From a virus (Duplodnaviria; Caudoviricetes), in IMG/VR virus record IMGVR_UViG_3300048854_000073, positions 1,828 through 65,827 of that record: DNA of 64,000 bases, one strand, 5' to 3'. Positions 1,643-7,388 of this stretch are shown here, one piece after another. Under the pieces are notes generated by a model. It was not told the origin of the DNA, did not search any database, and saw only the letters and a program-made list of their open reading frames with translations. Both the position numbers and the translations under genes were made by a program. Each line of letters starts with the position of its first letter. Positions within the stretch are counted from its first letter, which is position 1.

Positions 1643-3769
1643 CTACCAGTCGCCGACCGTCACCAACGTAGACTCCACCCAATTCGTCACCAGTTGCGGC
1701 TTGCGATCTGTCGGCATCGTGTAACGTTTCGTCGCGCGTTCCGCCATCACATCGAAGTGATGACGCGAAAAATAGCTCATCCCGGCCGCGAGAATGCGAT
1801 CATCCTTCTTCCCACTCTGATGATCCATGCGCGTCTTTCCGCTGGCCAATGTCTTGCGCTCCCACGCACGGCACTCTTCAATCAGCCACTTTGAATTCGG
1901 CTTGTACCATCCGTTGTTGATGGCATCCACGAAGCGACCTGTCAGCAAAGGACGCGTCACTGCGTTGGTGCGAAATCCCTGAATCACGCTGCGACCTTCG
2001 CGCGGGTGCTTGTGGTCGTACTGTGTGGCCGCATCGTGATGGTAGTTGAATCCCATCAGCTTCAATTGCAGTTGGCAATCATCACCCGTGCGCACGCGCT
2101 GTTCGATGCAGAACTTCACCCCACGCGGGTCCTTCGTCTTGCGTCCATACCACGCTGCCAGACAGGCTGCGAATCCAACCATCTGCGGAGCATTGACGCG
2201 GTTGTGAATGAACTCGCACACCTGCTCATCGCAGAACTCTCCGAAGACGTTGTGCGCCACCGAGAGCACCGATCGATCCTCATCCGGCGTGCCCAGCCCA
2301 TCGGCGGTATCGATGCCGAACGTGTAGTCGTAGCCCTCTTTCGGAGGCTCCCACACGCGCACGCGTCCAAGCGATGCCGCTTCGATGTCTTCGCTGCAGG
2401 GCTTCAGTGGAACCAACGCCCACTCATAGCGCTGACCACGATGCGAATTCCAGTAGACGCGAATCCGTTCCTTGTCGTAGTCAATCTCATCGTCAAGCGG
2501 CTCAAAGCCGTCATCGATGCTGTCGCCGATGATGGCGTAATCCTGAAACTTTTTGTTGCGCTCCCGGTCCAGCACCTCAATCACGTGATCTTCAAACACG
2601 GGATCGTTCTTACCCTGCAGCGCTTCAAAGTCGTCTGCTGGCATCTGCGAAAGCCAAATCTTCTGCGTGTTGGTCTTTACCGACTCGTCATAGTTGAACT
2701 CCCAATACCACTGTTGCTCCAGTGGCATCTTCCAGTTCTTCCCCATCACCTTGGCAAGATACGGCGTGTTGCGGATGTACACCTCGCAACGCGTCACATG
2801 CTTCCGCGTCTCTTTGTGCGGGCTCCAGCCTGCAGGAATCGGGAACTTGCGCAGCCAGTCCTTCTCCGGATACTGATCCGGCGCGCACGGCCATGAAAGA
2901 AAGATCGGGCATAGGCGCGCGCGTTTCTTCGGCCAGTCCTCTTTGATCGCGCGCCACTTGTTCGCCTGCCAGCCCGTGTTCCCGTTGCCGGTTCCTTCAT
3001 ACACCGCGAACAGCTTGCGCGTGGGGTGAGTCGCCTTGAACAGGCCTTCTTCCAGAACCTTCTGTGGATTCGGAATGTCGCCGATCTCCGAGATGTGTAC
3101 CAGCGTTGGCGTCCAACCCTGCGCGATACCGGTTGCCTGCGATCCTGACTGCACCGCCAGCACGGAGCCGTTGGCAAACTCCATCAGCTTGATTCGGTCT
3201 ACCGTCTGGCGCGGGATCAGCCACCACGGAAGATGCTTCAGGCAGATATCCATCATGCGGCCAAGCAGCTCCGATTTGTCGGCATTGATCGATGCCATGA
3301 CGGCCTGCGTGTTCTTCATGAACAACAGGCGATGCAGGAACTTCAAAGCCACTTTGGTGGAGACGCCGAGCTGACGCGCCTTCAACACCATCAACTCAAT
3401 CGGCCACTGCTCCTCATCGAACTCCGCGATGATCGAATCAAAGACCTCTTGCGACTGGCGATTCTGAAACTTGTAGATCGTCGCGCTGTTGTCGCTGATG
3501 TACGCATAGCGCGTCTCCCAATAGCTTGAATCGAGCGAGCAAAGAATCTGCTCGTTCTCGATCATGCGCCTGATCCAGTCCGCGCGCTGCGATGTCAGAC
3601 GCGTATTCAGGTCGATATAGCTATTGCGGGAGTTGGCGTCTACCTGCGTAATCGAGTCGATGTAAGCCTTGAACTCTTCCACCCACGCCAAAGAGTGATA
3701 CTCCGGCATCCACCCGTTGCGGCGTTCGAAGTCCACCAGATTTTGCAGGATGACGGATTGCGAGTACAT
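1643..3769 (-). CDS. terL: Terminase large subunit
   Basis: Walker A-like LKARQLGVST, Walker B-like LVHISE, nuclease motifs FGIDTADG and KKDDRILA; 708 aa. Confidence 0.93.
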   Translation of the reverse strand: MYSQSVILQNLVDFERRNGWMPEYHSLAWVEEFKAYIDSITQVDANSRNSYIDLNTRLTSQRADWIRRMIENEQILCSLDSSYWETRYAYISDNSATIYKFQNRQSQEVFDSIIAEFDEEQWPIELMVLKARQLGVSTKVALKFLHRLLFMKNTQAVMASINADKSELLGRMMDICLKHLPWWLIPRQTVDRIKLMEFANGSVLAVQSGSQATGIAQGWTPTLVHISEIGDIPNPQKVLEEGLFKATHPTRKLFAVYEGTGNGNTGWQANKWRAIKEDWPKKRARLCPIFLSWPCAPDQYPEKDWLRKFPIPAGWSPHKETRKHVTRCEVYIRNTPYLAKVMGKNWKMPLEQQWYWEFNYDESVKTNTQKIWLSQMPADDFEALQGKNDPVFEDHVIEVLDRERNKKFQDYAIIGDSIDDGFEPLDDEIDYDKERIRVYWNSHRGQRYEWALVPLKPCSEDIEAASLGRVRVWEPPKEGYDYTFGIDTADGLGTPDEDRSVLSVAHNVFGEFCDEQVCEFIHNRVNAPQMVGFAACLAAWYGRKTKDPRGVKFCIEQRVRTGDDCQLQLKLMGFNYHHDAATQYDHKHPREGRSVIQGFRTNAVTRPLLTGRFVDAINNGWYKPNSKWLIEECRAWERKTLASGKTRMDHQSGKKDDRILAAGMSYFSRHHFDVMAERATKRYTMPTDRKPQLVTNWVESTLVTVGDW

Positions 3770-5819: not shown

Positions 5820-6029
5820 TCAATTCTTAACTACACCGCGCAGTGTGCCGCACGCCTCTTTCATGCGGTCGGCCTTCAACTGCAGATCGTCCAATCGCTT
5901 CGCGTTCTCCAGCGAATAAGCTCTGATCTCATCGCGCATCTTCCGCATCCGTTCTTCGCTTCGGAATCCCACAAAAAGGCTTACCATCTGCGCCACCATC
6001 AGGATTGCTATGAGTCTTAGTCGCGCCAC
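5820..6029 (-). CDS. Small membrane-anchored coiled-coil protein
   Basis: Hydrophobic N-terminus followed by heptad-like segment. Confidence 0.5.
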   Translation of the reverse strand: MARLRLIAILMVAQMVSLFVGFRSEERMRKMRDEIRAYSLENAKRLDDLQLKADRMKEACGTLRGVVKN

Positions 6030-6203
6030 GCTTTCCTTCTTTCTTTACTGCAGGTCCGCAGTTCATCGAGCACTGACCGTCTTCCCAACAGTCACCGCAG
6101 GGCGGAATGGATCGAATGCCAAACCGGTAGTTGAAGATCACTTGCCTCCTTAATGGCGGAAGGCCGGAGCCACGTGCCTGTGTACCCCGACCTCCCGACT
6201 TCA

Positions 6204-6276
6204 TTTTTCGAGTGGGAATCGAACCCACTACCCTCTGATCCAAAATCAGATGCTCTACCAAGTGAGCTATCGAGTA
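6204..6276 (-). tRNA. Degenerate tRNA-Gln(UUG)-like element
   Basis: D arm GCTC-ACTTGGTA-GAGC, anticodon stem TCTGA/TCAGA with loop TT-TTG-GA, T arm GTGGG-TTCGATT-CCCAC; acceptor stem has mismatches at 2:71 and 3:70 and no CCA. Confidence 0.65.
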
Positions 6277-6279
6277 AGC

Positions 6280-6552
6280 GGACCTGAGTTGCTTCCACGT
6301 CGCTAACCTGAAGTGTCTTAGCCTGAAAACCGCTGCTCTACCACTGAGCTACCCTGCCATGGATTTTTGGGGGCAGGGACCGGATTCGAACCGGCGACCA
6401 CGGGTTGATTTCACTCCATCAGCTTCGCTTTGCTGTGCCGCAGGTTTGAGCCTGTTTGGGTGATAGCCTGAATGCCCCTGAGAAGGGCAGCGTGAGCCTC
6501 AACCTAAGCCTGAGCCTGAGCCTTGGACAACCTCTTTCGAGGCCACCCAAAT
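6280..6552 (-). ncRNA. Structured ncRNA with hexamer repeats and a circularly permuted tRNA-like domain (6328-6406)
   Basis: 8-bp closing helix 6544-6551/6455-6462, GAAA-tetraloop hairpin, ~13 YTCAGG-like hexamers; order T arm, 3' acceptor strand + CCA, 9-nt linker, 5' acceptor strand, D arm. Confidence 0.8.
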
Positions 6553-6554
6553 TG

Positions 6555-7316
6555 TTAGGCGGGTGACGGCTGGAAGATGTAATCCAGCAACGCTCCGCCA
6601 ATCTTGTTTACAGTAGGATCGATCTCCTCGCCATTGGCGCGAGAACGTGCCCTGCTGACCGCGCGCAGCAAGTCTTCGCCGCGCTCCAGAAACTTCGCCT
6701 TATCCGCAGGAGTAAGCATCGCCGACCACTCCTGCTCCAGAATCACACCAACGCGCTCGTCAACCGTCTCCTTCGCCACCTGCGCGGGATGCTTGTCTGT
6801 CGCCGGGGTGATGGTGATGTACTTGTCCTTCTTCTGCGTGCTGGTCTTCTTTACCTCGCGAGCCACATACACACCCGTCTCGCGCGCTGAATCCTGCGTG
6901 AAGCCCTTCGCCGGATCGAGCGTCGGGATCGTCTTGGCAAACTCCAACATCTCCCGCACGCGCTTCTCAAGCTGCAGCAAAGCGGTAGTCGGAACGTCCT
7001 TTGCAATCGTGGTTCCGTCCTCCGTGATGATGTCTGCTTTGGCGCGCGTGTTGGCCATGTCGATAGCGTAGGCCACATCAATGAATCGCATGGCGATGGG
7101 CTTCAGCCAGTCGATCTCCTTCCGCACCGTCGTCTGAATGTCGCTCTGCTCGCGCGTCTCCGGCAACTGACCTTCCGCGTCCGGGGTGTAGGTCACAATC
7201 TTCATGCCGAACAGATGTTTCTTATTCGCGAAGGTATGTTGCAGATCGGTTCTGCACTTCTCCGCCTGCCCCTTCAGGTTCGATTCGACTGCCAAAAGCT
7301 CATGCAACTTTGCCAT
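6555..7316 (-). CDS. Uncharacterised 253-aa helical-hairpin protein, candidate partner of the downstream ncRNA
   Basis: ATG 7316 after GAGGGG; MAKLHELLAVE...IDMANTRAKADI...LLQLEKRV...ATDKHPAQV...ARSRAN. From memory it resembles a widespread DUF family related to DIP1984/DUF6847 (unverified). Confidence 0.85.
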   Translation of the reverse strand: MAKLHELLAVESNLKGQAEKCRTDLQHTFANKKHLFGMKIVTYTPDAEGQLPETREQSDIQTTVRKEIDWLKPIAMRFIDVAYAIDMANTRAKADIITEDGTTIAKDVPTTALLQLEKRVREMLEFAKTIPTLDPAKGFTQDSARETGVYVAREVKKTSTQKKDKYITITPATDKHPAQVAKETVDERVGVILEQEWSAMLTPADKAKFLERGEDLLRAVSRARSRANGEEIDPTVNKIGGALLDYIFQPSPA

Positions 7317-7352
7317 AGGATTCCCCTCATGCCTCCTTGCGACTGAGAGAAA

Positions 7353-7382
7353 AATATAGCACGCTTGCGCTCTCACTTGCGC
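7353..7382 (-). promoter_or_regulatory. Promoter with extended -10 (TGCTATATT) and two GCGCAAGYG direct repeats
   Basis: Same architecture as the promoter at 12840-12869. Confidence 0.55.
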
Positions 7383-7388
7383 TATCGG

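Follow-up and report, generated by a model that had tools for sequence, protein, structure and literature searches.

We analysed a 64,000-nucleotide stretch of DNA (the window) that makes up most of IMG/VR virus record IMGVR_UViG_3300048854_000073, a 65.8-kb record bearing direct terminal repeats. The window encodes genes of ordinary temperate-phage type (integrase, resolvase, RusA, primase and tail fibre). It also carries a gene for a protein of the Pfam family DUF7873, followed by an RNA of about 400 nt. This RNA is modular: a hexamer domain is followed by a tRNA body in permuted order, then by either a tRNA or a hairpin resembling an anticodon arm, and finally by a terminal hairpin. The parts of the unit are listed below in the order in which they would be read, with all coordinates given on the minus strand of the window.

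7353..7358, minus strand: TATATT box, a candidate and possible -10 element (direct reading)
6555..7316, minus strand: DUF7873 protein gene, 253 aa, stop codon included in the coordinates (Pfam PF25283)
6442..6553, minus strand: hexamer domain, or H-domain (model R2, 68.4 bits)
6410..6441, minus strand: linker between the H-domain and the tRNA-like module (direct reading)
6319..6409, minus strand: circularly permuted, anticodon-less tRNA-like module (model R1, 89.7 bits)
6277..6318, minus strand: 3' tract, associated with three further YTCAGG hexamers (copies at 6322-6327, 6307-6312 and 6283-6288)
6204..6276, minus strand: tRNA-Gln(UUG)-like gene, final RNA module ahead of the terminal hairpin (ARAGORN; Rfam tRNA)
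6158..6196, minus strand: conserved terminal hairpin (minimum free energy -34.6 kcal/mol, z = -4.7)

A preliminary description of the locus had placed the coding sequence, an 8-bp helix, a GAAA hairpin, a TGCCC/GGGCA hairpin and six in-register hexamers exactly where direct reading finds them. The further YTCAGG motifs that it gave at 6477, 6467, 6322, 6307 and 6283 are real copies, these positions being their low-coordinate ends. The tRNA-Gln(UUG)-like gene (6204-6276) and the terminal hairpin (6158-6196) did not figure in it.

Gene and RNA travel together. Model R1, which was built from 36 sequences of the tRNA-like module and scores genuine copies at 67-92 bits, detects a module downstream of the DUF7873 gene, in the same orientation, at each of the 35 distinct virus loci. 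Eleven of these loci were not among the seed sequences (51-89 bits), and some have an extra small open reading frame (ORF) or a tRNA between gene and RNA. The module also lies behind the gene in each of the five cultured phages checked, which have Rhizobium, Ralstonia, Klebsiella, Vibrio and Gordonia hosts, and in these five records its site is either an unannotated gap or, in one, a suspect tRNA call. In Klebsiella phage vB_KpM_FBKp24, the annotation 'tRNA-Sup-TTA' (MW394391.1 46041-46120; 3018-3097 of locus L087) overlaps an R1 match (3054-3165, 56.5 bits) and may be a mis-call of the permuted tRNA-like module. Besides DUF7873, the neighbourhood comparison revealed no protein family common to the loci.

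The association extends to bacterial chromosomes. Among 101 Cytophagales genomes, 19 encode DUF7873 and 16 carry RNA copies of at least 67 bits, all of them DUF7873-positive (contingency counts 16, 3, 0 and 82; Fisher p = 6e-16, although p-values from this set overstate independence, as the genomes are related). The unit is multi-copy in Cytophagales chromosomes, and some of the strong RNA copies sit on contigs other than that of the gene. Carriers include phages of Acidobacteriota or Verrucomicrobiota (inferred from metagenome-assembled genomes, MAGs), Bacteroidota, Proteobacteria, Actinomycetota and Cyanobacteria. Thus, the earlier proposal that protein gene and RNA form a conserved unit holds for virus loci, cultured phages and Cytophagales, and the two are inherited together. 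The units are located within phage tRNA clusters and, in large phages, near Ro60 and transfer-messenger RNA (tmRNA) genes, which points to a connection with tRNA or translation-related RNA metabolism. Within 8 kb of its unit, one 238-kb Ro60-encoding phage relative (L074) has several tRNAs and a tmRNA gene (212-642, Rfam 55.2 bits).

The tRNA-like module runs from T arm through a 7-bp acceptor stem and D arm to a 4-bp stub, and the anticodon loop is absent. Its parts within 6319-6409 are anchored by the R1 match and the alignment columns, as follows.

6400-6403 with 6330-6333, minus strand: anticodon-stem stub, 4 bp
6379-6395, minus strand: T arm
6372-6378, minus strand: acceptor 3' strand, CCCUGCC
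6368-6370, minus strand: encoded CCA, preceded by the discriminator C
to 6359, minus strand: linker after the CCA, in the acceptor-stem loop
6352-6358, minus strand: acceptor 5' strand, GGCAGGG
6335-6349, minus strand: D arm

Across the 36 sequences, 97.5% of module cells are paired, compared with 36-48% after sliding of the 3' partners, and compensatory change occurs at 20 of 20 pairs. The acceptor stem is 7 bp long in every copy and all seven of its pairs covary. The discriminator base and CCA (N-CCA) are encoded in most copies from outside the Bacteroidota. With an R1 score of 89.7 bits in the window and covariation at every pair, the permuted tRNA-like core flanked by hexamers, as first described, is well founded.

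These data bear on two alternatives. If the module were a remnant, either an attP-type tRNA fragment or decayed tandem tRNA genes, it would suit a phage that has an integrase. Indeed, tRNA 3' halves are common in attachment sites, and tandem tRNA genes yield spurious R1 matches of 20-51 bits. However, covariation of the seven acceptor pairs between the two halves already contradicts decay, true copies score higher than the spurious ones, and the arrangement is conserved from phylum to phylum and also in phages that have terminal repeats, leaving a remnant scarcely credible. The second alternative is a two-piece tmRNA-like RNA, or a permuted true tRNA gene, that is charged and used by the ribosome. 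The permuted gene order, the 7-bp acceptor stem and the encoded CCA fit this idea; as in two-piece tmRNA, a CCA-ended acceptor piece precedes the 5' acceptor strand, and the mature form is likely to be two-piece. The Rfam permuted, beta and cyano tmRNA models give weak matches of 15-26 bits, all below their thresholds, but ARAGORN detects no tmRNA in the window. Unlike two-piece tmRNA, the DUF7873-linked RNA has a full D arm and lacks pseudoknots, a conserved tag reading frame and the G3:U70 pair; position 3:70 is C:G in the window and varies in relatives, as does the discriminator base. A tag peptide in the 3' piece was considered and rejected, the reading frames differing between relatives L005 and L030. 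Given also that the module has only a 4-bp stub in place of an anticodon loop, a charged, ribosome-used RNA is very improbable.

The hexamer domain, which lies between the gene and this module, is closed by an 8-bp helix, P1, in which UUUGGGUG (6544-6551) pairs with CACCCAAA (6455-6462). Within the helix are the P2 hairpin (GCCUC-GAAA-GAGGU, 6530-6543), six hexamers in perfect register (6491-6526) and the P3 hairpin (UGCCC/GGGCA, 6473-6489). AGGCU hexamers flank the 3' strand of P1, with one extra copy on either side. There are 7 copies of YTCAGG in 6283-6520, against 0.29 expected per 400 nt at the window-wide rate, and the most frequent 6-mers in the domain are AGGCTC, GGCTCA, CAGGCT and CAGACT. 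Identity at a lag of 6 nt is 0.40 in the window's H-domain versus 0.25 ± 0.04 after shuffling, a value equalled by none of 5000 shuffles, and 0.352 versus 0.248 ± 0.009 in 24 relatives (z ~12). The spacing of 6 nt is kept throughout, while the hexamer itself changes: AGGCUC or AGACUC (about YAGRCU) is the consensus in the window's lineage, AGCCUU or AGUCUU that of Bacteroidota, AAACUA that of Vibrio phages and GCGUUA that of phiRSL1. The hexamer sequence shifts along with the lineage of the DUF7873 protein.

With model R2, which describes the hexamer domain, 30 loci are recovered, of which 7 were not in the seed. P1 is 88.8% paired across the family, with compensatory change in 5 of 7 pairs. 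The sequence of the P2 hairpin varies freely among relatives, with its position and a GNRA or UUCG loop retained. These values derive from a model-based alignment, used because MAFFT misplaced P1 in about a third of the rows. The linker that follows the domain forms a small hairpin in relatives, e.g., UAUCG...CGAUA (L005, L009, L012, L024 and L030). The preliminary description had proposed collecting homologues and inspecting the RNA downstream; doing so recovers both the hexamer period, in 24 relatives, and the covariation of the module, in 36 sequences. Neither the hexamer domain nor the terminal hairpin has a family in Rfam, and besides tRNA the scan produced no above-threshold match.

Three readings of the hexamers were set aside or found little backing. 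The motifs CU-CAG-G, CU-UAG-G and UU-GAG-G resemble leucine anticodon loops, a reading dropped because other lineages have AAACUA, GCGUUA or AGCCUU. Palindromic pairing of hexamer with hexamer (CUCAG with CUGAG) is possible in the window and in its relative L002 and impossible in relatives of the CAGACU type. Hexamers over the DUF7873 ribosome-binding site are clear only in L026, and across 25 loci the sequence ahead of the start codon shows no lag-6 signal.

In several known systems, short single-stranded motifs at a fixed spacing of 5-6 nt mark repeated protein contacts. TRAP binds 11 (G/U)AG triplets separated by 2-3 nt spacers in the trp leader, and the Cas7 backbone of Cascade and the paramyxovirus N protein bind 6 nt per protomer. 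The DUF7873-linked hexamers resemble the sites of these systems in their NAG core and regular spacing. Unlike them, DUF7873 has no relation in sequence or fold to TRAP, Cas7 or N, and its predicted oligomer is a dimer.

The protein was initially described as an orphan, yet it matches DUF7873 (PF25283) over residues 1-249 of 253 (E 1.7e-63, 215 bits against a cut-off of 27) and has ~1991 relatives, the best of which are 55-84% identical and include one from an Edaphobacter MAG. A tBLASTn search locates the family in 75 cultured phages (of Vibrio, Rhizobium, Gordonia, Klebsiella, Serratia, Arthrobacter, Ralstonia, Rhodococcus and cyanobacteria), in all of which the gene is labelled 'hypothetical protein'. 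Among cultured carriers, it is gp048 of Klebsiella phage vB_KpM_FBKp24, ORF270 of Ralstonia phage phiRSL1 and gp144 of Gordonia phage Phendrix (host G. terrae 3612); Vibrio phage D497 is a further carrier. No family match was obtained in PHROGs, NCBIfam or PADLOC, and no sequence match in the PDB. The label 'helical' also requires amendment, as the AlphaFold model (pLDDT 75) combines four long helices with long beta-hairpins. Neither Foldseek nor a wide search of 48,161 chains returned a convincing structural neighbour, and a search of the ESM Atlas gave only unnamed clusters at 0.80, which is chance level. Weak Foldseek rows (E 0.02-0.3, TM about 0.13) raised the prospect of kinship with the Cas7/Cascade backbone, which would have suited the 6-nt register. 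This lead was dropped because the search of 48,161 chains gave generic helical matches only (best Z 8.2) and no Cas7.

Modelled as a homodimer, DUF7873 scores 0.63, versus 0.00 for the best of three controls. Of 30 proteins solved as same-chain pairs, 20 attained this mark, as did 1 of 23 proteins with a single-chain structure. Any two runs have 71% or more of their contacts in common, and the partner pLDDT is at least 76. The models support self-association. The oligomerisation suggested in the preliminary description is therefore seen in prediction, in the form of a symmetric dimer instead of a ring.

The same description raised the idea of a type III toxin-antitoxin-like pair, in which a protein toxin is neutralised by a repeat RNA. 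A protein gene does adjoin a repetitive RNA here, but the PADLOC result was negative and no ToxN/AbiQ-like or nuclease fold was found. Each repeat measures 6 nt, against about 36 nt in ToxIN-like antitoxins, the repeats are not processed units, and tRNA modules form part of the unit. The RNA lies downstream of the gene, whereas ToxIN-like antitoxin repeats precede the toxin. In light of these differences, such a pair is a very distant prospect.

Relatives carry AUCAGGCUCA-type hexamers immediately 3' of the stub, at the site corresponding to the 3' tract. Next comes the tRNA-Gln(UUG)-like module, which scores 55.2 bits with the Rfam tRNA model (threshold 29) and is mispaired at 2:71 and 3:70. 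Its counterpart in the closest relative (L002 3547-3621) has an 8-nt anticodon loop. Elsewhere, this position is occupied by a tRNA with a varying anticodon or, in several phages, by just an anticodon-arm-like hairpin, e.g., GGUCUUGAAAACC. The tRNA part of the unit may have no role in translation. Some unit-linked Cytophagales tRNAs (L078, L079, L066 and L084) are odd: those with Leu(GAG), Leu(CAG) and Ser(GCU) anticodons have no long variable arm and measure just 74-75 nt, and one with Ile(GAU) measures 86 nt. The terminal hairpin, GGGAGGUCGGGG...CUCCGGCCUUCC at 6158-6196, is nucleotide-identical in L002. Its equivalents in other relatives are G+C-rich with a GGNWA-type loop, usually with a U tract next to them. 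A small Cys-rich ORF (6020-6141, minus strand; GTG start at ~6141) begins directly after the hairpin, and its AAGGAGG Shine-Dalgarno sequence (6145-6151) falls within the 3' flank of the hairpin. L002 has the same nucleotides in both hairpin and Shine-Dalgarno sequence, although the surrounding proteins have diverged.

Could the RNA serve the linked tRNA without forming a stable particle? It might be a leader or processing scaffold that recruits RNase P and other tRNA enzymes or blocks exonucleases, or a 3'-untranslated element of the DUF7873 mRNA, and the protein might act on tRNA by other means, perhaps enzymatically. In every complete unit, including stand-alone chromosomal copies, the module is followed by a real tRNA (52-68 bits), and the position of units within phage tRNA clusters also fits. 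DUF7873 has numerous invariant polar residues, e.g., in TLDPAK and HPAQ motifs. Yet several phages in which the tRNA is reduced to an anticodon-arm-like hairpin or is mispaired in the acceptor keep the H-domain and module intact, and a scaffold leaves unexplained both the strict 6-nt periodicity of the tracts and the genome-wide co-occurrence with one protein. We consider this alternative unlikely.

Upstream of the gene, the dedicated promoter proposed at 7353-7382 is reduced to the TATATT box (7353-7358); this has no acceptable -35 element, and a consensus promoter scan of the region found nothing. A sister clade has TTGCGN-17-TATATT upstream of its DUF7873 gene. Just upstream of the TATATT box are two direct copies of AGCGCAAG, 6 nt apart (7360-7385, minus strand), which could be an operator.

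So, is this a Y RNA of Ro60? The comparison, first made in the preliminary description, is apt. As in Ro60 (Rsr)/YrlA, a protein gene adjoins a modular non-coding RNA on the same strand, the tRNA-like module has the same permuted order of T arm, acceptor stem and D arm (which the Rfam alignment covers), and the unit is found in phages and bacteria alike. The best non-tRNA Rfam match of the module is YrlA (RF02553), at 37 bits (E 3e-6) against a gathering score of 69; relatives score 26.8-37 bits, so that the RNA attains about half of what is asked of a YrlA. It is thus conceivable that we are looking at an ordinary YrlA-type Y RNA of Ro60/Rsr, be it the host's or, in large phages, the phage's own, with DUF7873 as an accessory or effector of that pathway. 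Four relatives encode Ro60, three of them at most 5 kb from the DUF7873 unit and on the same strand. The TROVE domain is enriched among DUF7873-positive Cytophagales genomes (13 of 19 versus 13 of 82, p = 1.4e-5). R1 also picks up Ro60-adjacent RNAs: of eight R1 matches at 57-66 bits in DUF7873-negative genomes, three are canonical YrlA RNAs adjoining TROVE and two are tandem arrays. In an 11.3-Mb Cytophagales genome (G036), dense R1 arrays of 29-51 bits occur at C27:1108866-1113777 and C37:444048-447364, with a TROVE gene (1107129-1107854) beside the former; the arrays could consist of tandem tRNA genes or of YrlA-like RNAs.

Other observations separate the two RNAs. As had been noted for the window, there is no TROVE/Ro60 gene, and this is also true of the whole 65.8-kb record, which thus lacks the same-strand TROVE gene within about 4 kb that served as a criterion in Chen et al. 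2014. TROVE is missing from 32 of the 36 virus records searched (this one and 35 relatives), among them 15 of the 17 records with a completeness rating of at least 90%, and four Cytophagales genomes have DUF7873 and strong RNA copies without TROVE. DUF7873, with 253 aa and a predicted fold of helices and beta-hairpins, has no TROVE/vWA ring. The Ro-binding stem formed from the 5' and 3' ends of Y RNAs is not present in the DUF7873-linked RNA. As for the GNCGAAN0-1G motif, the P2 loop of the window has CUCGAAAG without the leading G, and relatives have GAAA, GCAA or UUCG loops, with nothing constant. In place of stem and motif there is a helix-closed domain of single-stranded repeats with a 6-nt period. 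Unlike YrlA, the DUF7873-linked RNA encodes CCA, and a tRNA and a conserved terminal hairpin are part of the unit. Finally, in the three Ro60-encoding relatives examined, all of which match TROVE and two of which reach the Ro60-vWA cut-off or fall just below it, a second, YrlA-type RNA immediately adjoins Ro60. The acceptor hairpin of this second RNA is short and closed, and both CCA and hexamer tracts are absent from it. Since these relatives carry such a separate, hexamer-free RNA, the DUF7873-linked RNA is, judged by its sequence, a class separate from YrlA and not a Y RNA that lost its Ro60. We therefore regard the Y RNA alternative, too, as unlikely.

The explanation we favour, to which we give about an even chance, is that the DUF7873 gene and the ~400-nt RNA are one functional unit that yields a dedicated ribonucleoprotein. 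This particle would probably be an undescribed one, similar in style to Ro60/Y RNA and with a new protein and a new binding module. We found no paper describing the pair of DUF7873 gene and RNA, and no Rfam family either; a 2026 preprint on bacterial tRNA mimics covers other RNAs. Gene and RNA would be co-transcribed. The YrlA RNA of Mycobacterium smegmatis, whose acceptor stem is likewise 7 bp long, undergoes cleavage by RNase P and acquires CCA (Chen et al. 2014, PMC4201824). Similarly, RNase P may cut the DUF7873-linked RNA between 6359 and 6358, on the 5' side of the acceptor 5' strand, and again on the 5' side of the tRNA, and 3' trimming would expose the encoded CCA (6368-6370). The outcome would be a tRNA-shaped core in two pieces, such as experiments have demonstrated for M. 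smegmatis YrlA (PMC4201824). DUF7873, probably as a homodimer, would bind the periodic hexamer tracts that flank this core, much as Ro60 binds the Y RNA stem. In the last and least certain step, the tRNA-shaped, CCA-ended head would engage host tRNA-handling factors, and the particle would serve tRNA or RNA surveillance during infection, or bait tRNA-targeting enzymes.

Several points weigh against such a particle. We infer the binding of hexamers by DUF7873 from analogy; its fold matches no known RNA-binding protein in Foldseek or the wide structural search, its isoelectric point of ~6.5 is near neutral, and its predicted oligomer is a symmetric dimer instead of a ring. The single-sequence RNA fold is no better than that of shuffled sequences (z = +0.5), and the covariation of P1 is carried mainly by a single pair. 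The relatedness of the Cytophagales genomes tempers the co-occurrence statistics. Because DUF7873 and TROVE co-occur beyond chance in these genomes, there is also room for a role of Ro60, and the DUF7873 and Ro60 systems may serve related ends. Lastly, 17 of 27 genes of one Bacteroidota clade have no RNA within 3 kb. In the protein tree, all loci of this type belong to a single chromosomal clade, interspersed with RNA-adjacent loci. Five genomes with an unlinked gene have R1 matches of 55-77 bits elsewhere, and all eight unlinked matches inspected are complete units with helix and hexamers, tRNA-like module, real tRNA and terminal hairpin with U tract.

A more specific version of the ribonucleoprotein proposal, which we put forward as a tentative possibility, is a new class in which a dimeric protein reads a 6-nt track and displays a two-piece, CCA-ended, anticodon-less tRNA body along with a tRNA or anticodon arm as cargo. 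Such particles might be used by some bacteria, and by phages of at least six bacterial phyla, to capture, protect or counter tRNA-acting enzymes, e.g., tRNA-targeting defence nucleases, in functional parallel to Ro60/Y RNA but with an unrelated protein.

To our knowledge, no bacterial particle with a tRNA mimic at its core has been described other than that of Y RNA and Ro60, whose function is only partly understood. Here, a similar tRNA-shaped module is joined to a different RNA domain and to a different, highly conserved protein. If the two form a particle, DUF7873 may read a 6-nt code, and the gaps seen downstream of the DUF7873 gene within phage tRNA clusters would be accounted for. Cultured carriers exist (phiRSL1, FBKp24, Phendrix/GodonK, and Vibrio and Rhizobium phages), and such a particle would offer a testable route to the purpose of tRNA mimicry in phage infection.

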